Below are positions 593 to 16,234 of a stretch of 64,000 nucleotides of DNA, piece after piece. Source of the stretch: Bacillota bacterium (GTDB lineage Bacteria; Bacillota; Sulfobacillia; Fermentithermobacillales; Fermentithermobacillaceae). The stretch is from assembly GCA_040880305.1 (NCBI GenBank), contig JBBDIP010000044.1, positions 15,914 to 79,913 of the forward strand, written 5' to 3'. The notes beneath the pieces are model-generated. The model had not been told where the DNA came from, made no database searches, and worked only from the letters and a program-made list of their open reading frames with translations. The translations under genes were made by a program, and so were the position numbers. Every line of letters begins with the position of its first letter. The first letter of the stretch is position 1.

Positions 593-2677
593 ATGACCAC
601 GCCGATACGCACGTCAAACCACCTGGCGGGCCAAAAGAGCCCGTACCTTTTGCAGCACGCCCAAAACCCGGTGGACTGGTATCCCTGGGGTGATGAGGCG
701 TTTTTGAAGGCCAGGTCAGAGGACAAACCCGTCTTCCTTAGCATTGGCTACAGCACTTGCCACTGGTGCCACGTGATGGCGCGCGAGTCCTTCATGGATG
801 AGAAGGTGGCTGACCTGCTTAACCGGGCATTTGTCGCCGTGAAGGTCGACAGGGAGGAGCGCCCCGACGTCGACCACGTCTACATGAACGTGTGTCAGAT
901 GCTCACCGGCAGCGGCGGGTGGCCCCTGACGGTGCTCCTGACCCCGGATAAGAAGCCCTTCTTCACCGGCACCTACTTTCCCAAGGACAGCCGTTTCGGC
1001 CTGCCGGGCCTCTACGATATCCTGGACGTCATCGCGTCAACCTGGTCTTCGGACCGCAGCGCTTTGGAGGAGCAAGCGGACAGGGTATACGCAGCGCTGA
1101 AATCGGCGGGAGAGTCCTTGACGTCGCAGGGACTGCATGACCTGCCCAAGCCCGCTCCCGGCGGTACGCCGTTTGAGGCGGTCATCGACAAAGCGTACCG
1201 GGACCTCTCCCAGTCCTTCGACCAGGACAACGGAGGTTTCGGAAGCGCCCCCAAGTTCCCTAGCGTCCACACGCTCACATTCCTTCTCCGGTATTGGAAG
1301 CGGACAGGGCAGAAGCGCGCCCTCCAGATGGTCGAAGAGACGTTGCGCCATGCGTATGCAGGCGGGATCTACGACCACGTGGGCTTCGGGTTCTTCAGGT
1401 ATGCGACCGATACAAAATGGCTCGTCCCCCACTTTGAGAAGATGCTCTACGACCAGGCCATGATGATGATTGCGTTTACCGACCTGGGGCTTGCGACCAA
1501 GAAGGACGCATACCGAGACGTTGTGTATGAGATAGCCACTTTTCTGGAGAACGAGATGAAGTCGCCTGAGGGTGCCTTCTGGTCGGCGGTTGACGCGGAA
1601 TCGGAGGGCGAGGAAGGCAAGTTCTACGTCTGGACGCCCGATGAGGTGGCAGAGGTTCTGGGTCCTAAGGAGGGCAAGGCCTACTGCCAGGTTTACGGCA
1701 TAACCGCGGAGGGTAACTTTCACGGCAAGTCGATCCCCAACCTTGTGCCGGCAGGCGGCAGGCCAGACGCGCCAGCGCGGACCGAGGTGGACATCGGGCG
1801 CGGCGGCGCCGTGTCGGACAAGAACCGGCGAAAGCTATACGCGGCGCGCTCACTTCGCGTCCACCCGGGGGTCGACGATAAGGTGCTTACTTCGTGGAAC
1901 GCCCTGGCCATAGCCGCTCTTGCCAGGGCGGGACGCGCGTTCAACGACCCCGCGTTCACCGATACAGCGAGCGAATGCCTATCGTTTCTGGAGAGGAATC
2001 TGGTCAAAGACGGCGAGGTCTATGCCCGCTTCAGGGATGATGAGGTCGCCTACCGCGGCTACCTGGACGACTACGCATTCCTGATCTGGGCCTACCTGGA
2101 GATGCGTGAGGCCACCTTGGATACCCGATACCTTACGCGGGCTCTGGAATTGTCGCTGCGCATGGTGGAGCTGTTCTGGGACGACGAGGCTCATGGCTTC
2201 TTCGTGACCGCAAAGGACGCCGAGGAACTCCTGGTGCGTCCCAAAGAGTTTTGGGACGGAGCGATACCGTCGGGCAACTCGGTGGCTGTCACGGACTTGC
2301 TCCGAGTCGGGCATCTCCTGGAGAGGGATGACCTTGTTGAGATCGCCTACGCCGCCATGGAGGCGCTTATCCCTGCGATGCGAAGGGAAGCCGTTGGCCT
2401 ATGCCACCTCATATCCGCCGTCCTTTATGCGGAGGGCGGGGCGCAGGACGTGGTGGCTACCGGGCGCAAGGATGACCCAAACATGCAGGCGATGATCTCT
2501 TACATCAACAGCGTGTTCCTGCCTCACGCGCAGGTGGTGTTCGCGGAGGGACTGTCAGCGCCCGAGCGACCGACGCTAAGGATCTGTCAGCGTAAGACGT
2601 GCGGGCCGCCGCTGACTTCTGTGGACGCTCTGCAGAAGGCACTGCTGGTGCCGCCGAAGCCGCAGCTCCGGTCGTGA
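593..2677 (+). CDS. Thioredoxin-domain protein of the DUF255/YyaL family (thioredoxin-like N-terminus plus six-hairpin glycosidase-like C-terminus)
   Basis: N-terminal motif [46 protein letters not shown] is typical of DUF255. A GGAGG RBS lies 8 nt upstream of the ATG at 593. The ORF track extends to 524, but that part is probably untranslated. Confidence 0.8.
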
Positions 2678-2685
2678 CGCCGGTC

Positions 2686-3642
2686 TCACGACCGCCTGTC
2701 TACGACCCCCCGAGCGATCGCCGCCAACGCGGATTTGGCGAGGGAAGGCAGGAGGGCGTTCAGACGGGACTCGGCGGATAGGGCGAGGACCCGGGCGTTT
2801 TCCCGGGCGCGGTCGATGCAGTCGCTTTGCTCGCAGAGAGCTCTGATTTCGGTCACGGTATCGCCTTCGACGCTCCTTTGGCCGAAGGCGCGCTCCAACA
2901 TCCCGCCCGCCGGGCCGGCCATCGCCATGATAAGCGGCAGTGTGAGTATCCCCCTGCGGATGTCGTTGCAGGACGGCTTGCCTGAAGTCGCGGAGTCCGA
3001 CGTGAGGTCTATCACGTCGTCGACAATCTGAAAGGCGCACCCCAGTTCAATGCCGAAACGCAGCATGGCCTCCTCGACTTCCCTGGTCGCCCCTCCCAGG
3101 ATGGCTCCTGCCTGGCAGGCTGCCCCGATGAGGGCGGCGGTCTTGCGGCAGATGTGCGACAGGTATTCACGCTCGGAGACTGTGCAGTCGAAGAGGCGGC
3201 TGTCCTGGGCGACTTCGCCCTCGCAGGTGAGTTCTATCGCCTGATTCACCAAAGAGGCTATGCCCAATCCCGAGTACTTGAGGGCGATCTTGTTGGCCCT
3301 GGTGAAGAGGTAGTCGCCTGCCAGCACCGCTGAGTGGATCCCCCAGATCAGGTGGACTGTGGGCAGAGCGCGGCGCTCGGTCGCGCCGTCGATAATGTCG
3401 TCGTGGACCAACGAAGCCATGTGTACCAGTTCGAAGGCGGCTGCCACGTTGAGCACGTCGTCGTCAGCAGGTTCGGCCCCCGAGGCGCGAGAGCAAGCCT
3501 CGGACGTCCACATCACAAGATGCGGACGGAGCCTTTTGCCGCGGGTTGAAGCCAGATAATCCACCAGTGGCTGCAGTGGACCGGCGTCCTCCAGGAGTTC
3601 GCGCATCTTGCCTTCAATGGCTGCGTTCCAATCTGAGGGCAA
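2686..3642 (-). CDS. Trans-polyprenyl diphosphate synthase (heptaprenyl/octaprenyl-diphosphate synthase family)
   Basis: Two aspartate-rich motifs are present: LVHDDIIDGATERR (first DDxxD) and FQIVDDVIDLTSDS (second). Confidence 0.8.
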   Translation of the reverse strand: MPSDWNAAIEGKMRELLEDAGPLQPLVDYLASTRGKRLRPHLVMWTSEACSRASGAEPADDDVLNVAAAFELVHMASLVHDDIIDGATERRALPTVHLIWGIHSAVLAGDYLFTRANKIALKYSGLGIASLVNQAIELTCEGEVAQDSRLFDCTVSEREYLSHICRKTAALIGAACQAGAILGGATREVEEAMLRFGIELGCAFQIVDDVIDLTSDSATSGKPSCNDIRRGILTLPLIMAMAGPAGGMLERAFGQRSVEGDTVTEIRALCEQSDCIDRARENARVLALSAESRLNALLPSLAKSALAAIARGVVDRRS

Positions 3643-3748
3643 CGGCCTTCCGGTCTGCGGTTGCGTCTTCGTTCCAACCCACCCCGTTCGTAGGGAAACT
3701 CCGGCTTAGTATCCCTTTGGGCGGATGGGGTGATTCGCGGGCGCTACC

Positions 3749-4234
3749 TCAGTAGGCGGACGGCAGCGCGTAGCCTTCGTGCCGGAGGAGCAGTCTCTTG
3801 GCGGGGAGGCCGCCGCCGAAGCCGCCAAGGCCGTTTTGGGCCAGCACCCTGTGGCACGGCACGATGATCACCACGGGATTGCGGGCACACGCGTTCCCCA
3901 CGGCTCTGGCGGCCTTGGGGGAGCCCAGCCGCTCCGCTATCTGCGCGTAAGTCATGGTATGGCCAAAGGGGATAGATAGGAGGACATCCCAGACCTTCTT
4001 GTGGAAGATTGGCCCCACAAGGCCCACCGGCACCGTGAATTCCCTGAGATCCCCGGCGAAGTAGCGCTCCAGTTCGCCGGCTACCCGGAGCAGTACGGCA
4101 AGATCGCCGGCTTCCTCCTCCGTAAGCGACTCGGGACCGCGCCTGAACTCGATGGCGCCGATTTTGCCGTTCTTCGCCGAGAGGTACAGCGGGCCGACAG
4201 GAGAGCCTATAGTTATGCAGGCTATTGTCATCAC
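3749..4234 (-). CDS. ogt: Methylated-DNA-[protein]-cysteine S-methyltransferase
   Basis: Active-site PCHRV motif (IIVPCHRVLAQNG) and the HTH-like YAQIAERLGSPKAARAVGNA segment. The length of 161 aa fits. Confidence 0.85.
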   Translation of the reverse strand: MMTIACITIGSPVGPLYLSAKNGKIGAIEFRRGPESLTEEEAGDLAVLLRVAGELERYFAGDLREFTVPVGLVGPIFHKKVWDVLLSIPFGHTMTYAQIAERLGSPKAARAVGNACARNPVVIIVPCHRVLAQNGLGGFGGGLPAKRLLLRHEGYALPSAY

Positions 4235-4848
4235 CCCCGTTAGAATGTCGCGCAGGTTCTGTGGGTTAGGATTCTAGAAGAACGTGCAAAAAACCTGTTG
4301 CGTACATTCAGGTGTTCTGCTAATATACGTGCAATATCCAGAGCAAGCAGGTTTGTCCTGCTTCAAGGAAGTGTACCTAGGGTTCCGCGTCCCAGTATTC
4401 GAAAGATGCTTATTGGGGCGGACAGGACCGAGCGGTACAAGCTTTGCCAGGCAAAGCACACCGTGGGGATAAAAAACCCGTGCGGAAAGTTCCTTGTACC
4501 GGCAACGGCGCAAGGCTTGCTGCGCGGGTTTATCTTTATGCACCGATTGCCGGGCAGAAGGGGGGTGATAGGATTGGGGATTACCGTGATTTCGAAGAGT
4601 CCCGAGGGTCTCGTGGGCTTTGCGTCCCTGGTGAAGTGCGGGAGAGGCCGGGGCACCAGGTCCCATGGAGCGATAACGCCCATGTAGATCTCGCCCCCAC
4701 GAACCCTAGCGCCGATGCCCGATGCGACCTCCCAAAGGAGGCTATGCTCGGCGGCAATGCGGGTACCTCTTCCATCTTCGCTCTAACCCATTCCATTGGC
4801 TGAGCTTTGCTTTACCAGGAATTCCAAACAAACAGGGGGTTAGACAGA
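4235..4848 (+). promoter_or_regulatory. Long (~610 nt) non-coding leader with lower GC and multiple stem-loops upstream of the membrane-module operon; candidate promoter plus cis-regulatory RNA
   Basis: There is no convincing ORF. The region is AT-richer than its surroundings. Long-range complementarity exists (AAACCTGTTGC...GCAAGCAGGTTT, AGCAGGtttgtCCTGCT, AACCCGTGCGG...CCGCGCGGGTT followed by TTTATCTTT). An AGGGGG RBS precedes the ATG at 4849. Confidence 0.3.
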
Positions 4849-5597
4849 TGGATAAGAACCTTGCTCTCGCTTTCCTTGTGATCTTCGCTGTCGCCAGTTA
4901 CTACGGGATGGTGAGGACCAACAAAGGAATGCACATCCCTATCCGCCGCGTGCCTGGGCTTGACGCGATAGAAGAAGCCATTGGTCGCGCGACGGAGATG
5001 GGGAGGTCATCACTCTTCGTTATCCCTTCCGGCGCCTTTGACGCCCAGGCGTTTGCTGCCTTCGACATTTTGGGCTACGTCGCCAAGCAGTCCGCCAAGT
5101 ATGATACCCGGCTAATCGTGGTCAACGGCCTTCCCGAGGCCCACGCAATATCCCAAGAAGTGGTCCACCAGGCTTATGTCTCGGAGGGTAAGGAGAGCAA
5201 GTACGACTCAAACGACATGCTCTTCCTCTCCAGCGGCTTCAACGCCGGGGTCCTCGGCATCTACGAGCGCGAAAAACTCGGCGCCAACTTCATGTTCGGC
5301 TCATTCTTCTTTGAAAGCCTCACGCTGGCCGAGGCCGGCTCCCGCACCGGCGCCATCCAGGTCTCGGGCACCGCCAACACCCATCAGCTCCCGTTCCTTG
5401 TCGCAACCTGCGATTACACCCTCATCGGCGAGGAGATATACGCGGCGGGCACTTACCTCTCACGCAACGGAGCTCAGATAGGCAGCCTGGTCGCTCAGGA
5501 ACTCGGCAAGTACGCGAGCATCGGCGTGATGCTCTTCGGTAGCCTTTACTTGACTCTGACTTCACCGGCCGTGCGACGTCTGGCCGGGAAGTTCTAA
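4849..5597 (+). CDS. Hypothetical bitopic membrane protein (N- and C-terminal TM helices flanking an ~180 aa domain); module A1
   Basis: Starts MDKNLALAFLVIFAVASYY (TM) with an AGGGGG RBS. It resembles ORF 6231-7073 in architecture and weakly in sequence. Confidence 0.6.
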
Positions 5598-5610
5598 GGG
5601 GGTGGCTTAA

Positions 5611-6231
5611 GTGAAACGCACAGTCCCGCTTCTCATAGGTTTCATGTCCGGCGCGATCGTACTCGCCAAGTACTTCATCGCCAACAAGGCGCTCGGCACC
5701 TGGGGGGCCACTATGGTCTCCTGGCGCACCATCGTAGCGGCGTTTGCCCTCGGCGTCGGAACAGTCAACCTGGTACAGATGCACCTGCGGAAAGTCACAC
5801 GCAGGCAAAAGGGTTGGGACTCCAGCGTCTTGCTGGTCATTTCCCTCGTCGGGTTCACGGCTATCGGCTTAACCAAAGGCACGACGAATCCTGTCTACAA
5901 GTGGGGGTTTGACTACCTCTACCAGCCAATCTACTCGGCCATCTCCTCACTTCTGGCTTTCATGATCACATCGGCGTCGTACAGGGCCTTCAAGGTCAAG
6001 GATTGGCAAGCAGGCGTGCTAATGGTGACTGCGGTGATTGTGATGCTGGGGCAGGTAGGAGTCGGGAGCCTCATCTACAAGGGGATCCCCTCTTGGTCCC
6101 AGTGGATCATGAGCGTGGTCAACCTCGCCGGCATGCGGGGGATCACAATCGGCGGAGCGCTTGGCGCCGTGGCCCTGAGCCTGCGGGTACTCCTGGGGCT
6201 CGAGCGCGGTTATCTTGGAGGTGACCGCTAA
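5611..6231 (+). CDS. Hypothetical polytopic membrane protein (about 5-6 TM); module A2
   Basis: Hydrophobic segments are spread throughout. The gene is tightly packed, 13 nt after the previous gene. Confidence 0.6.
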   Translation: MKRTVPLLIGFMSGAIVLAKYFIANKALGTWGATMVSWRTIVAAFALGVGTVNLVQMHLRKVTRRQKGWDSSVLLVISLVGFTAIGLTKGTTNPVYKWGFDYLYQPIYSAISSLLAFMITSASYRAFKVKDWQAGVLMVTAVIVMLGQVGVGSLIYKGIPSWSQWIMSVVNLAGMRGITIGGALGAVALSLRVLLGLERGYLGGDR

Positions 6232-7073
6232 TGGCCTGGTACATGCGTATCCAAAGCATCAGCAAGACGGCCATATGGGTGGCGCTGGTCGTCGCTTTTG
6301 TCGTCCCGTTGCTCCACCCACTGGGGCTGCCGCTCAACATCACGCCGGCGACCACCGCGGCGTACAACCTGGTAGACAGCCTTGAGACGGGTAGCATAGT
6401 CTTCCAGTCAATCGGGTTCAACCCGGCCGTCGATGCGGAGACGTGGCCGCAACTGGTGGCCCTCTCACGCCACTATATGTCCAAGGGCCTGCGGGTCATC
6501 TACTTCCCGACCATGCAGGAGGGCGGCATGTACGCGGAGAGGATAAAGGCTACCGTGGCGCCGGACTACAACTACACGTACGGCGCTGACTTTGCGATCC
6601 TTCCCTTCAAGGCGGGCGGCGAGACCACGATCGCCGCGCTACAGGACTTCTACTCCCTCATGACGGTCGACACTTACGGGACCGCCCTCACGAGTCTCCC
6701 TCTCTTCGGTGGCTTTGCAGGTATGCAGGACGTGGATGTCCTCGTCGCAGTGACCGGCGGGGAGGACCCGGTGCACTTCGTCAAGTACATCGAGCCCGTT
6801 TTTCACACCTCGATCATAGCCTGCGGGACGGCGCCCCTGCTGCCGGTGATCGGCCCGTACGTTGCAGCCAAGCAGATAAAGGCGACGGTGATCGGCCTAT
6901 CCGGCGCGGCCGAGTACGAAGCGCTGGCAAAGGTGCCGGGCACTGCCACCGGCGCCATGGACGCGCAGGCGGTCGGCCACATCCTGATAGTGTCGCTGAT
7001 CCTGCTGGGCAACGTGGGCTTCTTCTTCCAAAAACGGTACGGCAAGGTCGCGGAGGTGGCGCAAAATGGCTGA
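6231..7073 (+). CDS. Hypothetical bitopic membrane protein; module B1 (paralogue-like of 4849-5597)
   Basis: The start overlaps the preceding stop (ATGG). There is an N-terminal TM (AIWVALVVAFVVPLL), a central soluble domain and a C-terminal TM (ILIVSLILLGNVGFFF). Confidence 0.6.
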   Translation: MAWYMRIQSISKTAIWVALVVAFVVPLLHPLGLPLNITPATTAAYNLVDSLETGSIVFQSIGFNPAVDAETWPQLVALSRHYMSKGLRVIYFPTMQEGGMYAERIKATVAPDYNYTYGADFAILPFKAGGETTIAALQDFYSLMTVDTYGTALTSLPLFGGFAGMQDVDVLVAVTGGEDPVHFVKYIEPVFHTSIIACGTAPLLPVIGPYVAAKQIKATVIGLSGAAEYEALAKVPGTATGAMDAQAVGHILIVSLILLGNVGFFFQKRYGKVAEVAQNG

Positions 7074-7698
7074 CAAAATCGGGATCCTCCTGTCGGGACT
7101 CTTGATCCTCGCGGTCTACAGCTACCTTTTTCGGGATAGCAGAGCCTACTCGTACGTAGAACACATCTACGTAGGCTTTGTGGCGGCGCAGGCGATCGTG
7201 CTGGGTTGGCAGAATATCCGTGACGGAGCGCTGAGGCCGCTCCAGAAGGGACAATGGACCTTCCTTATCCCTGTGGCGCTAGGATTGCTAATGTACGCAA
7301 GGTTCTGGAAGCGGATCGGCTACCTGACGCGCCTTCCCGTGGCTTTCATGATGGGGGTGGCCGCCGGGGTGACCATCACCGGAGCCATCGTGGCGCAGTT
7401 CGTGACGCAGGTGCGCGCGACCATGCTCCCCCTGGTTAACGTGAACAACGTGATCATCGTGGTCGGGACAGCTTGCACGCTTTCGTTCTTCCTGTTCATC
7501 CCCCTGGGTAAGCACCTCGGGAACGGCAGCGGGGCGGGGCGTTTCTCGCCCATGAATGTGATGAGCAACATCGGCCGTGCGACTATGATGGCCGCATTCG
7601 GGTCCTCGTACGGGTTCATCGTGATGTCCAGGCTGTCCTACCTGGTCGCGCGACTGCAGTTCCTCTTGGGGACCTGGACTCAGGCTTTGACAAGATGA
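7066..7698 (+). CDS. Hypothetical polytopic membrane protein; module B2 (paralogue-like of 5611-6231)
   Basis: It overlaps the previous gene by 8 nt. It is ~210 aa with 5-6 hydrophobic helices. Confidence 0.6.
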   Translation: MADKIGILLSGLLILAVYSYLFRDSRAYSYVEHIYVGFVAAQAIVLGWQNIRDGALRPLQKGQWTFLIPVALGLLMYARFWKRIGYLTRLPVAFMMGVAAGVTITGAIVAQFVTQVRATMLPLVNVNNVIIVVGTACTLSFFLFIPLGKHLGNGSGAGRFSPMNVMSNIGRATMMAAFGSSYGFIVMSRLSYLVARLQFLLGTWTQALTR

Positions 7699-9443
7699 AG
7701 AGAGGAGAGTTACGAATGGTAGAAGGATTCGCCTGGGATAAGTACCTGAAGCACGGAGAACTGACCGCTTTCCTCAAGGAGCTTTGCGAAAAGTATCCCG
7801 ACTTGGCGGCCATGTACTCCATAGGGAAGACCTGGCAGGGAAGGGACATCTGGTGCATCGAGGTCACCAACAAGAAGACCGGGGCGGCGCAGGATAAGCC
7901 GGGCGTCTACGTCGACGGCAATACCCACGCGGGCGAGGTCACCGGCTGCATGATTTCCCTGTACACGGCCTGGCAGTTGCTTTCTCAATACACCACTGAC
8001 AGCAAGATCACGGAGTTGGTCGACACCCGGACCTTCTACATCATACCGAGGCTGTCGGCGGACGGCGCGGAGCTCTATCTGACCGAGCCCTATATCCCCA
8101 GGTCAAGCATCCGTCCGTGGCCCTACCAGGAGGAGCAGGACGGTCTGTACCCGTACGACGTCGACGGCGACGGCATAATCGCTCAGATGAGGGTCGCCGA
8201 CGAGAATGGGGACTGGCGGGTCTCGGAAAAGGACCCCAGGGTCATGGTGCGCCGCAAGCCCAACGAAGTGGGCGGCAAGTACTACGCGCTGTTCGGCGAG
8301 GGTTTGGTCAAGAGCTGGAACGGCGTCGAGATCAAGAGCGCCCCGTCCAAATGGGGACTGGACGTAAACCGCAACTACGGGGCTAATTGGCAGCAGGACT
8401 ACGTCCAGCCCGGCGCCGGCCCGTACCCGTTCTCTGAGCCCGAGTCACGGTCTGTGGCCGAGTTCTTTGAATCCCACAAGAACATAACCATCGCTCAGTC
8501 CTGGCACACGTTCAGCGGCGCTGTCCTGCGTCCGCCGGCCTCCAAAGCCGACAAGGACATCTCGCCCAAGGATCTGAAAGCGCTGAAGGAGATCGGCGCC
8601 GTGGGCACCGAGGCGACAGGATATCCCTGCGTGGGAGTCTATGAGGACTTCGCTCTGTCGAAGGACATCGTAGGCAAGCGCCCCCTTTGGGGCTCGGCGC
8701 TTGAGTGGATGATGGAGCACGCCGGCGTCATCGCCTACTCGACCGAGGTTTGGGATATGCCTAACCGGGCAATCGGCAGGCTCGACACGTATAAGACCCT
8801 CATGGACTGGACCGAAGACGAGCAGATCACGATGCAGAAGTGGAACGACGAGAACCTGGGCGGCGAGGGGTTCATCAACTGGCGCCCGTTCGACCACCCG
8901 CAGATTGGCCAGGTTGAACTGGGAGGCTGGAAGCACAAGTTCGTAATCCAGAATCCCCCTCCTAAGTTCCTTGAGCAGGAGTGTCAGAAGAACGCCAAGT
9001 CGGTCATCGAGATGGCGCTGACGACCCCACTTGTCAGGATCACCAAGCTCACCGCCGAGAAGGTGCAGGAGGGCGTCTACAGTGTGAAGGCCGTTGTCCG
9101 CAATATGGGCTACCTGCCCACCAACGTGACAGACCAGGCCGTCAAGAACAGGAAGGCCGCCAAGGTCAAAGCCGAGGTCAAGTTACCCGCTGGCTGCGGG
9201 GTAGTTGCAGGCAAGGCGGAGGTCGAACTGGGTCACCTGGAAGGGCGGCTCGCCTTGGGCAGGGCCTTCGGCGGCGCAAGCCAGGCCGGAACCCTGGTCC
9301 AGTGGGCGGTGAAGGTCGAGGCGGCGGCGCAGGCTGGGCAGTCTGCTCAGACCGGGCAGGCCGGTAAGGCTGCTGTGACCGTCACGGTCAGGGCAGGCAA
9401 CGAGCGCGGCGGTTTCGATAGCAGGACGGTGGAACTAGCGTAA
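7695..9443 (+). CDS. M14-family zinc carboxypeptidase homologue with no signal peptide and a ~200 aa low-complexity C-terminal extension
   Basis: M14 signatures are present: an N-terminal propeptide-like region (KTWQGRDIWCIEV), the zinc ligands HxxE (VDGNTHAGE), a later His (SWHTFSG), and a catalytic Glu region (YSTEVWD). The start overlaps the previous gene. The C-terminus is Ala/Gln/Gly-rich. Confidence 0.75.
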   Translation: MKRGELRMVEGFAWDKYLKHGELTAFLKELCEKYPDLAAMYSIGKTWQGRDIWCIEVTNKKTGAAQDKPGVYVDGNTHAGEVTGCMISLYTAWQLLSQYTTDSKITELVDTRTFYIIPRLSADGAELYLTEPYIPRSSIRPWPYQEEQDGLYPYDVDGDGIIAQMRVADENGDWRVSEKDPRVMVRRKPNEVGGKYYALFGEGLVKSWNGVEIKSAPSKWGLDVNRNYGANWQQDYVQPGAGPYPFSEPESRSVAEFFESHKNITIAQSWHTFSGAVLRPPASKADKDISPKDLKALKEIGAVGTEATGYPCVGVYEDFALSKDIVGKRPLWGSALEWMMEHAGVIAYSTEVWDMPNRAIGRLDTYKTLMDWTEDEQITMQKWNDENLGGEGFINWRPFDHPQIGQVELGGWKHKFVIQNPPPKFLEQECQKNAKSVIEMALTTPLVRITKLTAEKVQEGVYSVKAVVRNMGYLPTNVTDQAVKNRKAAKVKAEVKLPAGCGVVAGKAEVELGHLEGRLALGRAFGGASQAGTLVQWAVKVEAAAQAGQSAQTGQAGKAAVTVTVRAGNERGGFDSRTVELA

Positions 9444-9725: not shown

Positions 9726-10901
9726 CTACATTCCGTATACCTTCTTGCCCTCGATGAACACCTGCTCCACCTTGGACCTCACCCTGAACGGGTGGCCCGA
9801 CCACACCACGAAGTCCGCGTCCTTGCCCGCGTCCAAGCTGCCGACCCTGTCCTGCACGCCGAGGGTTTCGGCGGGAGTTAGGGTGACGGCGCGAAGGGCG
9901 TCCTCCTCACGCATCCCGTTAGCCCAGGCCAGTCCGGCCGCAGTGGAAAGGAACTGGATTGGGTGGAAGGGGTGGTCGCTGATGATGCTGACGCGGCACC
10001 CTGCTTTGGCCAGCACGCCGGGGGTCTCCACCGTGATGTTCAGCGTCTCGATCTTTGCCCTGTGCCACATGCTGGGGCCGACGTTTACCTTGGCCTTCCG
10101 CTTGCCCAGGAACTCGGCGACGGTGATGCCGTCGGTGCAGTGCTCGATGGAGAAGTCGATGTCGAACTCCTCGGCTATCCGCACTGCGGTCACGATGTCG
10201 TCGGCGCGGTGGGCGTGGACGCGGAGCGGGATCTCCCGATGCAGGACCTTCAAGAGGCCCAGCATGCCGAGGTCGGTGTCGGGGATCTTGGTGGCGTCCT
10301 TCTCTCCGGCCGCGACCTTGCGCTCGTAGTCTCGCGCCTTGAGGAAAGCGGCGCGGAGCACTGACGCGTTACCCATGCGCGTGGCCGGCATTTTGTTCTG
10401 GCGGCCGTAGGCGCCCTTGGGGTTTTCGCCGAGGGCGGCCTTCATGCCGCTGGGGTTTCGTACTATCATCTCGTCGACCAGGCATCCCGCGGTCTTCACC
10501 ACGACCTGCTCGCCGCCAATAATGTTGCCCGAGCCGGGCGTAATCTGGATTGTCGTGAGCCCGCCCGACCTGGCGTCGGCGAAAGCCGTGTGGTCGGGCC
10601 AAATGGAGTCGATGACTCGGACTTCCGGCGTGACGGGGTTGGTGGATTCATTGCCGTCGTGCTCTGGCTGACCGTACCACTCGCCCCAGATGCCGACGTG
10701 GGTGTGCTCGTCGATGAGCCCGGGGAGCAGGACCTTACCGGTGAGGTCAATCACTTGGGCCTCGCTCGGGATGGGGACGGCGTCTCCTGCTGCCACTATC
10801 TTGCCGCCGCTAACCAGGAGGACGCCCTTCTCGAGGGGCGGCCTGGATACCGGGTACATCTTGGCGTTGACGTAGGCGATCATCTTGCCTTCGTTGCTCA
10901 A
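9726..10901 (-). CDS. Metal-dependent amidohydrolase family protein (paralogue 1)
   Basis: It has the amidohydrolase HxH metal motif (LIDEHTHVGIWGE) and an overall TIM-barrel amidohydrolase pattern. Confidence 0.8.
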   Translation of the reverse strand: MSNEGKMIAYVNAKMYPVSRPPLEKGVLLVSGGKIVAAGDAVPIPSEAQVIDLTGKVLLPGLIDEHTHVGIWGEWYGQPEHDGNESTNPVTPEVRVIDSIWPDHTAFADARSGGLTTIQITPGSGNIIGGEQVVVKTAGCLVDEMIVRNPSGMKAALGENPKGAYGRQNKMPATRMGNASVLRAAFLKARDYERKVAAGEKDATKIPDTDLGMLGLLKVLHREIPLRVHAHRADDIVTAVRIAEEFDIDFSIEHCTDGITVAEFLGKRKAKVNVGPSMWHRAKIETLNITVETPGVLAKAGCRVSIISDHPFHPIQFLSTAAGLAWANGMREEDALRAVTLTPAETLGVQDRVGSLDAGKDADFVVWSGHPFRVRSKVEQVFIEGKKVYGM

Positions 10902-12214
10902 AGCAGGTCACCGCCTTTCGCAGGCCCGAGATCGACTTGCTTTCCATCTATGAAAGTGAACTCGGCCTTAGCGTCGTACTCGAATGGGTCCTTTGACCAG
11001 ACGACCAAGTCGGCGTCTTTTCCTACTTCGATGGAGCCCACGCGGTCAGCCACCCCGGCGATTTCTGCCGCATACCGGGTGATGGCCAGGAGGGCACGCT
11101 CTTCGTCCATGCCTTCGCGGATCGCCAAGCCGGCGCAGATGCGCAGGTACTGGATGGGGAGGACCGGGTGGTCGGTGATGATGGCCATTTTGATGCCCGC
11201 CTTGGAGACTGCAACGGGGGCGGCGAACCCGATATCCCTGACCTCAAGTTTGCTCTTGTCAGTCAAGGACGGGCCCATAGTCACGGGGATGCCGGTCGGC
11301 AGCACCTGGTCGACCACCTTGTCGCCCTCCGTGAAGTGCTCGAGGGATATGTTGATGTCGAACTCCTTTGCGATACGCAGGGCGGTCATAATGTCGTCAG
11401 CCCTGTGTACGTGGACGCGAAGCGGGATCTCCTTTCGCAGCACCCGAACGACCGACTCGTGGCGCAGGTTCATCTCGGGCACTTTGTCGGGGTCCGTGGC
11501 CTGCTCCTTCTTGCGTATGTAGTCCCTGGCCGCAAGGAGTGCCTTTCTCATCACCGCGGCGTTCCCCATGCGGGTCGCGGGGGTCTTATGCTGTGATCCA
11601 TAAGACCTCTTGGGGTTCTCGCCCAGGGCCGCCTTGAGTCCGCTGGGGCGCTTCACTATCAGGTCTTCTACCACGGAGCTGCCCCACGTCTTCATCACCA
11701 GCGTTTCGCCGCCGATGATGTTGGCGCTGCCGGGATCCACCTGCACGCAAGTGATCCCCGCGGCTACGGCGTCCTTGTAGGCGATGTCTTTGGGGTTGAT
11801 GCCGTCCAGCGCCCTGACCTCGGCGGTGACCGGGTCGGTGGTCTCGTTTCCGTCGGAGCCGGCCCAGCCGGCGCCGTCCTCTTCGATGCCGATATGGCAG
11901 TGAGCGTCGATGAACCCCGGAGTGACGATCTTGCCCTCGGCGTCAATGACGCGGTAGCCGGCGGGCACGGGGACGTCCCGGCCTACCGCTGTGATCTTAC
12001 CGTCACGGAAAAGGACAGTCCCACCCTCAATAACGGCAGGAATCGTGCGGCCGTCGCTGGCGGTGAGGATGCGCGCGTTCTTTATGGCAACGGGTGTCAA
12101 ATGGGTCTTCCCTCCTCTTTCATAGGGATTCAGTATAACGGCGGTCATATCCTTCCCGGCCCTAGGCACCCCAAACCCGCTCTGAAGGTGTAGTCCTGTC
12201 CTGTAGCGAACCAC
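10898..12214 (-). CDS. Metal-dependent amidohydrolase family protein (paralogue 2, with N-terminal extension)
   Basis: Motif GFIDAHCHIGIEE. It is clearly homologous to the downstream paralogue, and the two genes overlap by 4 nt. Confidence 0.8.
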   Translation of the reverse strand: MVRYRTGLHLQSGFGVPRAGKDMTAVILNPYERGGKTHLTPVAIKNARILTASDGRTIPAVIEGGTVLFRDGKITAVGRDVPVPAGYRVIDAEGKIVTPGFIDAHCHIGIEEDGAGWAGSDGNETTDPVTAEVRALDGINPKDIAYKDAVAAGITCVQVDPGSANIIGGETLVMKTWGSSVVEDLIVKRPSGLKAALGENPKRSYGSQHKTPATRMGNAAVMRKALLAARDYIRKKEQATDPDKVPEMNLRHESVVRVLRKEIPLRVHVHRADDIMTALRIAKEFDINISLEHFTEGDKVVDQVLPTGIPVTMGPSLTDKSKLEVRDIGFAAPVAVSKAGIKMAIITDHPVLPIQYLRICAGLAIREGMDEERALLAITRYAAEIAGVADRVGSIEVGKDADLVVWSKDPFEYDAKAEFTFIDGKQVDLGPAKGGDLL

Positions 12215-12297
12215 TTGGGAGCAGGCCGGGGTAAGCTCCGGTTTACGAGCGACCTGGAGGGGGGAACGGGTCCGGCGCCGCGCGCCGACTCTCTATT

Positions 12298-12924
12298 ATG
12301 GTAACCTTCTACGTGATACGCCACGGTGAAACCGAGGCCAACCGGGGCGGCATCTTCCAGGGTCATATGGACGTGCCCCTTTCCGATAAGGGCCGGAAAC
12401 AGGCCGAACTGGTCGCCAAGGCGCTCCAGGACATCCACTTCGACGCAGTCTACACCAGCGATCTGTCGCGGGCCGCCGAGACCGCCCGGGCGATCATGAA
12501 ATATCACGACTGCAGCCTGATTGCTGATCGAAGGCTGCGGGAGCTCCACGGCGGCGAGCTCCAAGGCCTCACCCAGAAGCAGGTATCGCTGAACTACCCC
12601 GAATTCGACCGGGCGTTTTCGGCGGATCGCTACAATACCCGCCGCCCTGGGGGCGAATCCTTCGCCGACCTCGACCAACGAGTGGCGAGGGCCATGGAGG
12701 ATATCCAGCACTGGCACGCCGATCGCCCCGGCGGAGCGACCGTCGCAGTGGTGAGTCACGGTGGGGCCATCCGCAGCATGCTGAAGACGACCGATCCTGA
12801 TCCCCTGCTAATAGGGCGGGTCGTGGGCAACTGCACGATCTCGGTCTTGGAGTGCGATGGAAGCACCTGGCAGACTGTGAAAGTTGGCGAGGGAGACCAC
12901 CTCCTGTGCCAGGGGGAGGAGTGA
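12298..12924 (+). CDS. Histidine phosphatase family protein (phosphoglycerate mutase-like)
   Basis: Motif VIRHGETEANRGGIFQGHMDVPLSDKGRKQA (the RHG catalytic motif). Confidence 0.8.
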   Translation: MVTFYVIRHGETEANRGGIFQGHMDVPLSDKGRKQAELVAKALQDIHFDAVYTSDLSRAAETARAIMKYHDCSLIADRRLRELHGGELQGLTQKQVSLNYPEFDRAFSADRYNTRRPGGESFADLDQRVARAMEDIQHWHADRPGGATVAVVSHGGAIRSMLKTTDPDPLLIGRVVGNCTISVLECDGSTWQTVKVGEGDHLLCQGEE

Positions 12925-12927
12925 CGC

Positions 12928-14260
12928 ATGGCTGGCAGTCGCGAGTGGATTGACCGGGGCGACCGCCTCATATCGCCTGCGGCGCGAATCCCTTACTATC
13001 CTCTTGTCGTGAAATCGGGGCACGGCGCGACCATTGAGGACTCGGATGGCCATACCTATCTGGACTTCCTCTCGGCGGCCTGCATCTGCAACACGGGGCA
13101 CAGCCATCCCAAGGTAGTTGAGGCCGTAAAGAAGCAGGCAGACAAGCTTTTGCACTACAACTTGGCCTACGCGTACACCGAGGAAGCGGTCGAACTGGCC
13201 GAGGAACTCTGCCGCATATCCCCCGGCTCATACCGGAAGAGAATTGCTTTCGGGCAGTGACGCCAATGACTGCGCCATCAAACTGGTCAGGCAAGCCACA
13301 CGGCGTCCTCTGGTCATCTCTTACCTGCGCTCCTACCACGGCGTGACGTACGGCGCGCTCTCTTTGTCGGCGGTGAGCCTGCCTATGAGGCAGTACATGG
13401 GCCCCACGCTCCCGGGCGTGTTCCACGCCCCCTACCCTGACTGCTACAGGTGCCAGTTTGGCGGCAAACCCGAGACTTGCGCTCTGGGGTGTCTGGCCGC
13501 GCTAACTAACCTATTCGAGACAACCTGCCCGCCGCAGGAAGTGGCGGGGATAATCATTGAGCCAATCCAAGGCGATTCCGGCATCATCGTGCCGCCGGAC
13601 AGGTACATGGTCGGCCTTCGCAGTCTTTGCGACTCCCACGGCATCCTCCTGGTATCCGAGGAGGTCCAGAGCGGGTTCGGGAGGACAGGGCGCTGGTTTG
13701 CCATACAGAAGTGGCCGCTTGAACCTGACGTCACCGTGATGGGGAAGGCCATTGCGTCGGGCATGCCGCTATCCGCGGTAGTCGGACGCGCGGAGCTATT
13801 TGAGGGCTGGGAGGCTCCAGGCCACGCCCTATCCACCAGCGCTAACCCCGTCTCGTGCGCCGCGTCCCTGGCGACCATCCGGGTTGTCGAGGAAGAAGGC
13901 CTGCTGCAGCGGGCGCGAGAGAGCGGAGAGTACCTCAAATCCGGTTTCGCCCACCTTGCGGAGCGTCACCGCCTGATCGGCGACGTCCGTGGAGAGGGGC
14001 TCATGCTCGGCGTAGACTTGGTCCTGGACAGGGATACCAGGCAGAGGGCCGCAAACGAGACCGCCAAGGTGGCGTTCGCCGCCTGGCAGCGTGGGCTCTT
14101 CATTACCTTCTTTTCCAGGTCGGTCCTGCGCATCGCGCCTCCGCTCGTGGTAACGAGATCCGAGATGGACAAGGCGCTGGAGATCCTCGACGAATCGCTG
14201 GCGGCAGTTGAAGAGGGTAAGGTCGATGACAGCGTGCTCAGCACAGTGAAAGGATGGTAG
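12928..14260 (+). pseudogene. Class-III (PLP-dependent) aminotransferase interrupted by a +1 frameshift near 13244-13260
   Basis: The 5' ORF (12928-13260, frame 1) ends ...SYRKRIAFGQ*. The 3' ORF (13244-14260, frame 2) resumes LLSGSDANDCAIKL..., which is the conserved SGS(E/D)AN motif. Together they form one aminotransferase (including IIEPIQGDSGIIVPP). Confidence 0.6.
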
Positions 14261-14299
14261 GGGTGCCGAAAGGGTTCAAGGCAGTCCTCTTCGATCTTC

Positions 14300-16234
14300 C
14301 TACACAGTTCTCTCTCTTGTCCTCGGCGTCTTGACCCAGTTCTTGGGCTCCTTGCCCAGCGCCTTGAGCACCAGCGCTGAGGTGAAAGGCACTGGGAACA
14401 GGAATGCGGCCAGAGGCAGGATCAAAAGGCCCACCAGGACTCCTGCTTGTCCCAGAAGCGTATCGGGCTCGTGGGACCTGTCGAAGTACGGCCGGTAGCG
14501 GGCGAAGGCGTAGAACGTGAACGAGAAGTAGATGACCGAGAAGAACATGAGGAGCCAGCGCGCCGGAGCGGGGACCGCCGTCTCGTCCAGCATCTGCGAG
14601 TACTGGAGCACAAGCGCGATGGGGGGCACGAAGGTCGCCATCTGGTAGACGACCCACTCGAACTGCCCCTTCAGGATAAGGTGGAAAAGCAGCTCGCGGC
14701 GCCGGTCCTCAGGGACGAACCTTGTATTAGCAACTTTGTCTACCACCTGGAGGTGGCCGGTCGCCCATCGTAGCCTCTGCCTGAAGAACGCCTTGTAGTT
14801 GGGCGGTGTCTGCTCGCTCGAAGGATAGGGGAGGTACTGCGGCCAGGCCCCTGTCTGGAGGTAGGCCCTGGTGCCGAACTCGAGGTCCTCAGTGAGACCG
14901 CCGTAGTCCCAGCCTCCAAGGCTCTCGAGCAGGCGCCGGTCCACGAAAAGATTGGTGCCGCCGACGAAAGGAAGGGTCCTGAACAGCCAGGGCAAGTACC
15001 AGTCGTGGGCCACGGCCTGGTATAGGCTGGCTATCCTGCAGAATAGCCCCATCTGGTAGAAGTTGCGGACCTGAAACACCGGGCCCTGGAAGATGCGCGC
15101 GTTCCCGGGGTCAAGCAACCGGCGGTAGGCGACGTAGGCTATGGCGTCCTGGTGCGGCCTGGACTCGGCGTCGTAGAACCCGCACGCCTCGGACCTGGGA
15201 TCCAGATAACGGAGGACCCAGTTGAGGGCACGTCCCTTGGTCGAGGGCACTGTATGCCCGGTCCTGCTGCCGTTCCACTTCCCGTCGTAGTCGTTGGGGA
15301 CAATGATGTGCTTGACCTGGGGCTTGTCCTCATCGGGCTCCGCCAGGATCCTATCCAGGACCTCCTGGGTGGTGGGATGCAGCCTCACCAGGGCGTCCAT
15401 CATCTCGCCGTTGAAACGCTCCTTGCCCACTATCCGCAACTTGCCTGCGGCCTCCAGGCGGATGGCCTCAATGGCGTCAAGAGAGAAGTCGGGCAGGAGC
15501 GCCGCCCGTAGCCAATCTCGACCCTTTTGGCCGGCGGGCTCCTCCCAATGTATCAGCGTCTGGTACAGAGCGAACACGTTGTTGACCAGCGAACCCAGGT
15601 CGGGCGCCGACGACAGGATCTCCGCAGCCAATCTGGGGTCTTCCTCTGCTGTCCTGCAAAGCTCGAAGACGCGGTTCGCGTCGGAGACGGGCGAGCACAG
15701 GTAGGCGAGGGCGTAGAGCAGGATTGAGCGGTACTGCTCATCCTCATCGGCTTCAGCAGGACCTGCCTCAGGCGACGTCCTGCCCGCGATAGCCCGTCGA
15801 AGCCTGGATATGACCTTCTTCCTCACGGTCCTGGCCCTAATCACTTCTTTCTCGTCGGTGACGACCAGGACCTCGAAACGGTCTTTCGGGTACTGCAGTC
15901 CGGATATGTGCCGGACGGTGTTCTCGATGACGTCAGATTCATCCCTTGCAGGGATAATGATACTGACGAAGGGGACTTCCCGGCCCATGACCGTGCACAG
16001 GTCTTCAATCACTGGAGTGGAGAGGACGGGGCGCTTCTGCCAGAAGTTTTTCTGCGTGTATCTTCTCCAAACGTAGAAACGCAGGAAAAGGATGAAGAAG
16101 ACGATGTAGACGGAATAGACGAACAAGTAAAGCGCGCGTGGTACACTCAAGCCGAACCCCTCCCCTAAAGACCAATCAAATATAACCTCAGTTGCCGAGA
16201 TGTCAAGTTGTGTCCTAATCCTAAGGGGCGCCAC
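14300..16234 (-). CDS. Integral-membrane processive family-2 glycosyltransferase (cellulose/chitin/hyaluronan synthase-like) with a ~220 aa insertion in the catalytic domain
   Basis: The GT2 motifs appear in order: IIIPARDES / VVTDEKE, then STKGRALNWVL, then YDAESRP, then GGTNLFVDRR / TEDLEFG, then QRLRWATG (the QxxRW processivity motif). N-terminal and C-terminal TM helices are present. Confidence 0.8.
   Translation of the reverse strand: MAPLRIRTQLDISATEVIFDWSLGEGFGLSVPRALYLFVYSVYIVFFILFLRFYVWRRYTQKNFWQKRPVLSTPVIEDLCTVMGREVPFVSIIIPARDESDVIENTVRHISGLQYPKDRFEVLVVTDEKEVIRARTVRKKVISRLRRAIAGRTSPEAGPAEADEDEQYRSILLYALAYLCSPVSDANRVFELCRTAEEDPRLAAEILSSAPDLGSLVNNVFALYQTLIHWEEPAGQKGRDWLRAALLPDFSLDAIEAIRLEAAGKLRIVGKERFNGEMMDALVRLHPTTQEVLDRILAEPDEDKPQVKHIIVPNDYDGKWNGSRTGHTVPSTKGRALNWVLRYLDPRSEACGFYDAESRPHQDAIAYVAYRRLLDPGNARIFQGPVFQVRNFYQMGLFCRIASLYQAVAHDWYLPWLFRTLPFVGGTNLFVDRRLLESLGGWDYGGLTEDLEFGTRAYLQTGAWPQYLPYPSSEQTPPNYKAFFRQRLRWATGHLQVVDKVANTRFVPEDRRRELLFHLILKGQFEWVVYQMATFVPPIALVLQYSQMLDETAVPAPARWLLMFFSVIYFSFTFYAFARYRPYFDRSHEPDTLLGQAGVLVGLLILPLAAFLFPVPFTSALVLKALGKEPKNWVKTPRTRERTV

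Follow-up and report, generated by a model that had tools for sequence, protein, structure and literature searches.

A ppGpp-type riboswitch candidate in front of a conserved four-gene membrane cassette and an M14 carboxypeptidase gene of a Bacillota bacterium

A five-gene operon (g1 to g5) of a Bacillota bacterium (Sulfobacillia, Fermentithermobacillaceae) raises the question of what four membrane proteins and a peptidase may do together behind one long leader. The operon lies in a stretch of 64,000 nt (the window; positions 15,914 to 79,913 of the forward strand of contig JBBDIP010000044.1, GenBank assembly GCA_040880305.1), and the coordinates of open reading frames (ORFs) and neighbouring genes are those of the whole window (Table 1). 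An earlier note, made from the sequence alone, had described five tightly coupled genes behind an unusually long AT-shifted leader. Both descriptions were confirmed: five co-directional ORFs lie on the + strand between 4848 and 9443, and 613 nt separate g1 from an ogt-like gene, where the GC content falls to 0.50-0.57 from about 0.62-0.65 in the flanks. The leader, which the note left uninterpreted, is the most informative part of the locus. Our explanation, to which we assign a probability of roughly 55% as a whole, is that promoter, riboswitch, small ORF, the membrane cassette g1-g4 and the gene of a cytosolic M14 carboxypeptidase (g5) form one transcription unit, which would be a starvation-induced module for acquisition of amino acids or peptides under a riboswitch of the guanosine tetraphosphate (ppGpp) type. 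The regulatory part of this explanation is well supported; the transport function, its substrate, the ligand of the RNA and the role of the M14 protein are what we infer.

With regard to the leader, Rfam gave a match at 4366-4486 to Guanidine-I (ykkC, RF00442) with 54.1 bits (E=8e-9). The match stays under the gathering score (63), in part owing to 19 inserted nt in the P1a loop. The minimum free energy (MFE) fold of the aptamer is a four-way junction, and the core pattern CUAGGGUUCCG...CCGAG...ACAC...GGG-A-rich loop-CCC is present together with P1/P1a/P1b, P2 and P3. Among six distinct homologous aptamers, 92.4% of cells pair and 14 of the 41 pairs are changed on both sides, three of them in P0. 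This level of covariation was reached by none of 500 shuffles, and slid controls collapsed. The aptamer precedes the cassette in loci L081-L089, L093 and L095. It does so too in the more distant Candidatus Fermentithermobacillus (L003), where the identity of g1 to the window's copy is down to 47%.

The subtypes of ykkC RNAs are separated by one or a few nucleotides, and we assigned this RNA to subtype 2a by such diagnostic positions. The GAG-C segment carries C where guanidine-I has A46 (C49 in the numbering of the phosphoribosyl pyrophosphate (PRPP) aptamer), invariant in the six homologues; this A/C position was used to split ykkC subtype 2 from guanidine-I (PMC6031431). Aptamers for ppGpp and PRPP typically have a P0 helix, and guanidine aptamers have none. 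The features described for ppGpp aptamers are P0, an A-G after P0, ACAC and a 4-nt NAAG linker (PMC9881157). After P0, our RNA has a conserved A and then an unpaired G (...GGAA-G-UGUACC). The consensus of the P3-P0 linker in ppGpp aptamers is (A)NARG of 4-5 nt, with CAAG in the crystallised aptamer of S. acidophilus, and the window has AAAG here, its relatives UAAG or CAAG. Moreover, the equivalent of PRPP G96 and guanidine-I G89, which we placed by eye against 20 PRPP aptamers of a published alignment, is U (4481; CCC-G-U-G) in all six homologues, and G in 20/20 of those PRPP aptamers. The exchange G96A was reported to swap the specificity of a PRPP aptamer to ppGpp by about 40,000-fold, and for the aptamer of T. 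oceani a C-to-U change at the first C of ACAC was reported to move the base preference from G to A. At every position compared, our RNA thus agrees by its sequence with a ykkC subtype-2a (p)ppGpp-type aptamer; a subtype-2a-like switch is very probable, and (p)ppGpp would be its ligand. In common with the known (p)ppGpp riboswitches of subtype 2a (T. oceani, D. hafniense ilvE and S. acidophilus, PDB 6DMC), it has the same P0/P1/P2/P3 four-way junction, the A-G after P0, a G-C in the P1 bulge, ACAC, the NAAG linker, a non-G at the G96-equivalent and a terminator in competition with P3/P0, as expected for an ON switch. It differs from them in the P1a loop, which is 19 nt longer, in the small ORF before the first large gene and in the DUF6754 cassette and M14 gene downstream. 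The riboswitch extends a known class by one member and a new regulon, and riboregulation is the first functional handle on the cassette.

The expression platform is an intrinsic terminator with a fold of -37.9 kcal/mol (z=-5.1), which is conserved in the relatives. The 3' strand of P3 supplies its arm at 4472-4485, and that of P0 is taken up in an inner hairpin. In the MFE fold of the whole leader, P1 and P2 stay and P0 and P3 are replaced by the terminator hairpin. Because the terminator competes with P0 and P3, an ON switch is predicted. The same P3-antiterminator logic is found in the ppGpp riboswitches of D. hafniense, for which ppGpp-dependent read-through was shown experimentally. Without ligand, the terminator would capture the 3' strands of P3 and P0, and transcription would stop at about 4540. 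During amino-acid starvation, (p)ppGpp would accumulate and bind the four-way junction, and the bound ligand would hold P0 and P3 together, block the terminator and allow transcription of the operon. The candidate sigma-A-type promoter in front of the aptamer was not listed by a consensus promoter scan, and its -35 element matches 3/6 positions.

T-box leaders regulate genes for aminoacyl-tRNA synthetases and for the biosynthesis and transport of amino acids. Such leaders were found in the sister clade of the window's cassette (L090, L091/L092 and L096), whose g1 is 68-71% identical to that of the window and which has neither the M14 gene nor the small ORF. The leaders of this clade and of a copy in L036 (g1 73% identical, with only a g4 fragment after g1) match the Rfam T-box family (RF00230) with 98-117 bits against a gathering score of 93, and end about 90 nt before g1. 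All four T-boxes have GAA-A-UAC-A in the specifier loop, ahead of the Stem I strand, with the tyrosine codon UAC as specifier; as a control, the same register gave AAC for the T-box of a gene in L096 resembling asparaginyl-tRNA synthetase (AsnRS; a 434-aa class-IIb synthetase). A locus of the T-box type (L091) and one of the aptamer-plus-M14 type (L095) come from one assembly. In a tree of g1+g2+g4, the T-box and aptamer types are sister clades, and L003, with the aptamer only, falls outside both. The window's own leader (4235-4860) had no T-box match even at E<=10. Two different RNA sensors of amino-acid shortage thus appear to control close paralogues of one membrane module. The sister cassettes resemble the T-box-controlled amino-acid transporter operons of Bacillota in having a canonical T-box with a UAC specifier directly before g1; on the other hand, the window copy has no T-box, and none of the regulated proteins falls into a known transporter family. 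In the L036 copy (5412-6817), T-box and g1 are directly followed by the g4 fragment (query residues 126-200), and this truncated or rearranged copy adjoins an intact inverted cassette. A further T-box, in L090 (17655-17898, + strand), precedes a Peripla_BP_6 / branched-chain-type ABC transporter, with UGG or GGU as specifier depending on the register.

To see how far the membrane genes travel together, relatives of g1 were collected by a scan of one genome per species (>536 found), and the gene order was determined by tblastn in the 80 best loci (GTDB). The order g1-g2-g3-g4 was found in about 75 of these 80, the exceptions being mostly contig ends, and g4 was always the fourth gene. The cassette occurs in Bacillota, Nitrospirota, WOR-3, Poribacteria, Cloacimonadota, Zixibacteria, Ignavibacteria and Planctomycetota, often in two or three tandem or inverted copies, and g3 has 2465 representative relatives at E<=1e-3. 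In one natural fusion protein (P0329, 579 aa), g3 corresponds to residues 8-266 and g4 to residues 369-576 (E=2e-18 for the g4 part). Because of the conserved order, the start/stop overlaps and the g3-g4 fusion, g1-g4 appear to be one functional unit, a conserved membrane complex. The earlier note had proposed a membrane complex coupled to an intracellular peptidase; the complex stands as a conserved unit, and the link to the peptidase remains plausible. Its expectation that all five genes are co-conserved failed, since the M14 gene joins the cassette only in the nearest clade: it follows the cassette only in L081-L089, L093, L094 and L095 (g1 72-100% identical) and precedes it in L080. It appears to be a clade-specific addition. 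Neighbourhood statistics over about 65 loci on each side revealed no consistent flanking partner and nothing consistent upstream; the neighbours were Memo-like proteins in 18/64, the PF13941 'MutL' protein in 6 and M14 in only 3. A metagenome scan yielded mostly distant relatives and no additional close ones, and a protein identical to g2 is on record from an uncultured Bacillota metagenome-assembled genome.

The cassettes of other lineages have surroundings of their own. Nitrospira-type genomes (L018, L024, L028, L031, L034 and other Nitrospirota; about 6250-7400 and 11100-12500) have the cassette between an upstream protein of ~375 aa with weak matches to Biotin_lipoyl/RnfC barrel-sandwich domains and a downstream Memo-like protein. 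In Symbiobacterium-type loci, a PF13941 'MutL' ASKHA protein follows the cassette. Three cassettes are carried by L090, at 808-3668 (-), 10001-12883 (+) and 12967-15845 (-), only one of them with a T-box, and another of these copies adjoins a Peptidase_M20 gene. Multiple copies in single genomes were also seen in L010, L011 and L060.

As for the membrane proteins themselves, the claim that none of the four belongs to a named family holds for g2-g4 and not for g1, which is a member of Pfam DUF6754 (PF20539; 4e-73, 246 bits with a threshold of 27, over model positions 10-249 of 257). The entry assigns no function, and the partnership with three unnamed families and the riboregulation are apparently not in it; no mention of DUF6754 was found in the searchable literature. 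No match was obtained for g2-g4 in Pfam, NCBIfam, PADLOC or PDB families, NCBIfam and PADLOC searches were empty for g1-g5, PDB profile searches were empty for g1 and g2, and g2-g4 matched no known transporter or defence family by sequence or fold. The architectures described before were found again: g1 and g3 each have an N- and a C-terminal hydrophobic helix flanking a domain of ~200-220 aa, and g2 and g4 each have about six hydrophobic segments. The g1 domain has a generic Rossmann fold; its best structural neighbours include transhydrogenase dIII, sirtuin and KTN/RCK domains, and the g1 family contains invariant Cys-Asp-Tyr and Glu residues. Positive-inside counts (Lys/Arg around the terminal helices, family averages) indicate N-in/C-in for g3, with its domain outside the cell, and place the start of the g1 domain inside. 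The domains of g1 and g3 are thus probably on opposite sides of the membrane.

The fifth gene was correctly recognised in the earlier note as encoding an M14 fold without a signal peptide: g5 matches Pfam Peptidase_M14 (E=7e-46) and has no hydrophobic N-terminal segment. Its zinc ligands, NR anchoring pair and catalytic Glu are all in place, in HAGE (78), NRN (225), WHT (270) and TEVW (350). The Ala/Gln/Gly-rich tail of ~200 aa turned out to be an extra C-terminal domain of that length, of which the last ~70 residues are rich in these amino acids. The closest solved relatives of g5 are carboxypeptidase T (4e-18) and then O, B and A, and the simplest reading is that g5 would be an active cytosolic carboxypeptidase. 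Compared with its best solved relative, carboxypeptidase T of Thermoactinomyces vulgaris (MEROPS M14A), g5 conserves the zinc ligands and the catalytic Glu motif, but it has no signal or pro-peptide, contains an insertion of ~70 aa (about residues 130-200) in addition to the C-terminal domain, and is translationally linked to membrane proteins.

What, then, could the cassette do? The importer reading is drawn from the tyrosine T-box that precedes genes for four membrane proteins, none of them with homology to biosynthetic proteins. Cassettes of the T-box clade would be switched on by uncharged tRNA-Tyr and serve as a tyrosine supply system, i.e. an importer, and g1-g4 would represent a novel kind of importer, with amino acids (in the T-box clade, tyrosine or aromatic ones) or short peptides as substrates. 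The two polytopic proteins g2 and g4 (about 6+6 helices) would form the translocation path, g3 would present an outward-facing anchored domain, and the cytoplasmic Rossmann-like domain of g1 would have a regulatory or coupling role. Because the module contains no ATPase, transport would be ion-coupled. The copy in the window would answer the general alarmone and would have acquired a cytosolic carboxypeptidase of the T/A/B type, which may release C-terminal residues from imported or endogenous peptides. As a tentative proposal, which we hold to be less likely than not, g1-g4, possibly with the product of the small ORF, would be an unrecognised family of multi-subunit secondary transporters for amino acids or peptides, with two six-helix subunits, an outward anchored domain and a cytoplasmic Rossmann-like domain, which in Bacillota would be wired to the stringent response by a ppGpp riboswitch and to the charging of tRNA-Tyr by T-boxes.

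Several observations weigh against a starvation-induced acquisition module of this kind. The Rfam score is under the gathering threshold of the sole ykkC-fold family matched, subtypes 2a, 2c and 2d were compared by published description and not by alignment, and the downstream genes (DUF6754, three unnamed membrane proteins and M14) fall outside the known gene associations of ppGpp riboswitches, which are branched-chain amino acids, glutamate synthase, natA, selB and rex. The M14 gene is absent from most cassettes, neighbours outside this Bacillota clade (Memo-like, PF13941 'MutL' and barrel-sandwich proteins) are unrelated to amino acids, and a search of about 170 loci with model R1, Rfam and a T-box motif scan detected no T-box or aptamer before the cassette outside one Bacillota clade and L003. 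Moreover, no subunit of g1-g4 resembles a known transporter by sequence or fold, the structure model of g2 is of low confidence and without structural match, and the Rossmann fold of the g1 domain could equally be enzymatic or regulatory. As to the RNA, the idea of a guanidine-I riboswitch, with an operon that handles guanidine or guanidino compounds by a transporter and a hydrolase, was first considered for the Rfam name and dropped on the diagnostic nucleotides. Guanidine-I is the only Rfam family matched, the overall ykkC fold and most conserved nucleotides are common to both, and amidohydrolase genes adjoin the operon; however, the match is sub-threshold, the defining A46 of the guanidine pocket is C in all six homologues, a P0 foreign to guanidine aptamers is present and covaries, U replaces the S-turn G of a long-range C-G pair, and the amidohydrolase genes are convergent and conserved only in the nearest relatives, which makes a guanidine function highly improbable. 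An aptamer of another subtype-2 class (PRPP, nucleoside diphosphate or orphan 2d) or of a new specificity, answering a non-alarmone signal, is quite unlikely. It would suit the narrow differences between subtypes, the novelty of the gene association and the comparison of 2a, 2c and 2d by description only, and the PRPP riboswitch (2b) indeed shares P0, the marker C and ACACC and has a nearly identical consensus. Yet PRPP aptamers require a G, G96, that pairs with the leading C of ACAC, and our RNA carries U in its place; the linker here is NAAG and not (N)UAGG/GAAG; and there is neither a purine-biosynthesis context nor a tandem guanine aptamer. Subtypes 2c and 2d show, according to their discoverers, more prominent changes of the pocket, and contexts of NUDIX/HAD hydrolases and EamA/TauE transporters. 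All contact residues listed for ppGpp aptamers are present in our RNA, and a starvation signal would match the uncharged-tRNA control of the sister cassettes.

With regard to the proteins, g1-g4 may be no importer at all but a membrane-bound enzyme or a redox/ion-translocating or envelope-stress module that is starvation-induced for another reason, an alternative which we consider possible but doubtful. It is consistent with ppGpp riboswitches that control natA-type systems linked to membrane stress, with the structural neighbours and invariant residues of g1, and with the lack of a detected transporter fold and the contexts in Nitrospirota and other phyla that are unrelated to amino acids; a Tyr-specific T-box before four membrane proteins, however, is most simply explained by tyrosine supply, and tandem arrays of two to three paralogous cassettes are typical of substrate-diversified transport systems. 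The earlier note had favoured a tandem duplication of a [bitopic + polytopic] gene pair, for gamma-glutamyl or murein-peptide processing. The g1/g3 and g2/g4 pairs are alike in size and hydropathy architecture, but the duplication was not supported by BLASTP, which gave no match in either pair, or by comparison of family profiles (43-85 sequences each; HH-suite, with 30 block-shuffles and a reversed control). The g1 and g3 profiles gave a faint colinear alignment of 112 columns (score 28, P=0.005, HH probability 7%), reached by 0/30 block-shuffles, whereas the g2/g4 score of 23 was at noise level, being below the reversed control (24.4) and equalled by 2/30 shuffles. In addition, the domains of g1 and g3 probably face opposite sides of the membrane, and a duplication, if any, would be older than the spread of the cassette across phyla. 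A duplication is thus not demonstrated, and at most g1 and g3 share a Rossmann-like fold. As for gamma-glutamyl or murein chemistry, in L088 and L090, GGT genes occur upstream at a distance of a few genes; against it, g5 groups with carboxypeptidases T, A and B, its solved relatives give no pointer to such chemistry, and no MpaA-type gamma-D-Glu-diaminopimelate amidase was among its PDB matches. The combined proposal therefore seems rather unlikely to us.

If the acquisition module is accepted, the operon is a new regulon member in the small set of genes directly controlled by a ppGpp-binding RNA, and a ppGpp riboswitch and a tyrosine T-box would play the same role on sister operons in one genome. 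For a widespread uncharacterised cassette (thousands of members, g2-g4 without a Pfam model), this gives a testable hypothesis, namely that starvation induces the uptake of tyrosine, other amino acids or peptides. If true, uncultured lineages of environmental importance, Nitrospira among them, would possess a transporter architecture of a new kind.

Table 1. Coordinates of the leader elements, genes and upstream neighbour of the operon in the window
Feature	Position	Strand	Description
ogt-like gene	3749-4234	-	divergent, upstream neighbour of the operon leader
Candidate sigma-A-type promoter	4298-4326	+	TTGCGT, 17 nt, TAATAT; read by eye; about 35 nt upstream of the aptamer
Predicted ykkC-fold aptamer	4363-4497	+	subtype 2a, (p)ppGpp type
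P0	4363-4370 with 4490-4497		8 bp, then unpaired G4371
P1, P1a, P1b	4372-4439		
Marker C	4433		within GAGC (4430-4433)
P2	4441-4457		
ACAC	4458-4461		
P3	4461-4485		
P3-P0 linker	4486-4489		AAAG
Intrinsic terminator (expression platform)	4472-4540	+	4472-4485 pairs with 4520-4531; T-rich tail TTTATCTTTAT
sORF1 (candidate small ORF)	4574-4687	+	37 codons, TTG start, Shine-Dalgarno sequence AAGGGGGGTGATA; hydrophobic stretch, then basic tail
g1	4848-5597	+	249 aa; DUF6754 protein, N-terminal transmembrane helix, Rossmann-like alpha/beta domain, long C-terminal hydrophobic helix
g2	5611-6231	+	206 aa; polytopic, about six helices; no named family
g3	6231-7073	+	280 aa; bitopic, acidic ~220 aa domain, probably extracytoplasmic; no named family
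g4	7066-7698	+	210 aa; polytopic, about six hydrophobic segments; no named family
g5	7695-9443	+	582 aa; M14 zinc carboxypeptidase with C-terminal domain of ~200 aa

The coupling of the genes by overlaps and a 13-nt gap, as described before, was borne out at all four junctions. The 13-nt gap between g1 and g2 contains the Shine-Dalgarno sequence GGGGGTGG, the g2/g3 junction is TAATG, g3 and g4 overlap by 8 nt, and g4/g5 is ATGA. The start of g1 is the ATG at 4848, preceded by AGGGGG, and a longer ORF from 4722 is unsupported by the relatives. For g5, the ATG at 7716, 18 nt past the stop of g4, is more likely to be the true start than the overlapping ATG at 7695, because the relatives are called that way and GAGGGG (Shine-Dalgarno) stands in front of it.

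The region between the terminator and g1 contains a conserved block, (A/G)GGG(A/G)GGTG(A/G)TA, which is almost invariant and is followed by a start codon and GGG, opening an ORF of 27-42 codons. This ORF is sORF1 in the window. At the corresponding position in L086, L088, L093, L094 and L095 stands an ORF that shares its Shine-Dalgarno context and begins with M-G-[ILM], and the ORF is present in all operons of the M14 type, including L094, which has no aptamer. Substitutions in sORF1 showed no codon-position bias (8/7/7), a consensus RNA fold of the block had negligible covariation energy, and a search of 4540-4848 for a second riboswitch or T-box gave no Rfam match at E<=10 beyond noise. The product of sORF1 could be a rapidly evolving small membrane protein or leader peptide, or the block may be of another nature. 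A further mini-ORF, 19 codons long (4744-4803, + strand), stands behind a strong AAGGAGG; as an ORF it is not conserved in the relatives, and the pyrimidine-rich block CCTCTTCCATCTTCGC inside it is conserved at the DNA level.

Downstream of the operon and convergent with it, two tandem genes of the amidohydrolase superfamily (391 and 438 aa; 9726-12214, - strand) have imidazolonepropionase and Xaa-Pro dipeptidase as weak best matches. The pair is kept beside the operon only in L081, L082 and L094, which are among the nearest relatives. Thiamine pyrophosphate (TPP) riboswitches, unrelated to the finding, precede thiamine genes near the cassette in L095 (10679-10777) and L051 (3785-3897).

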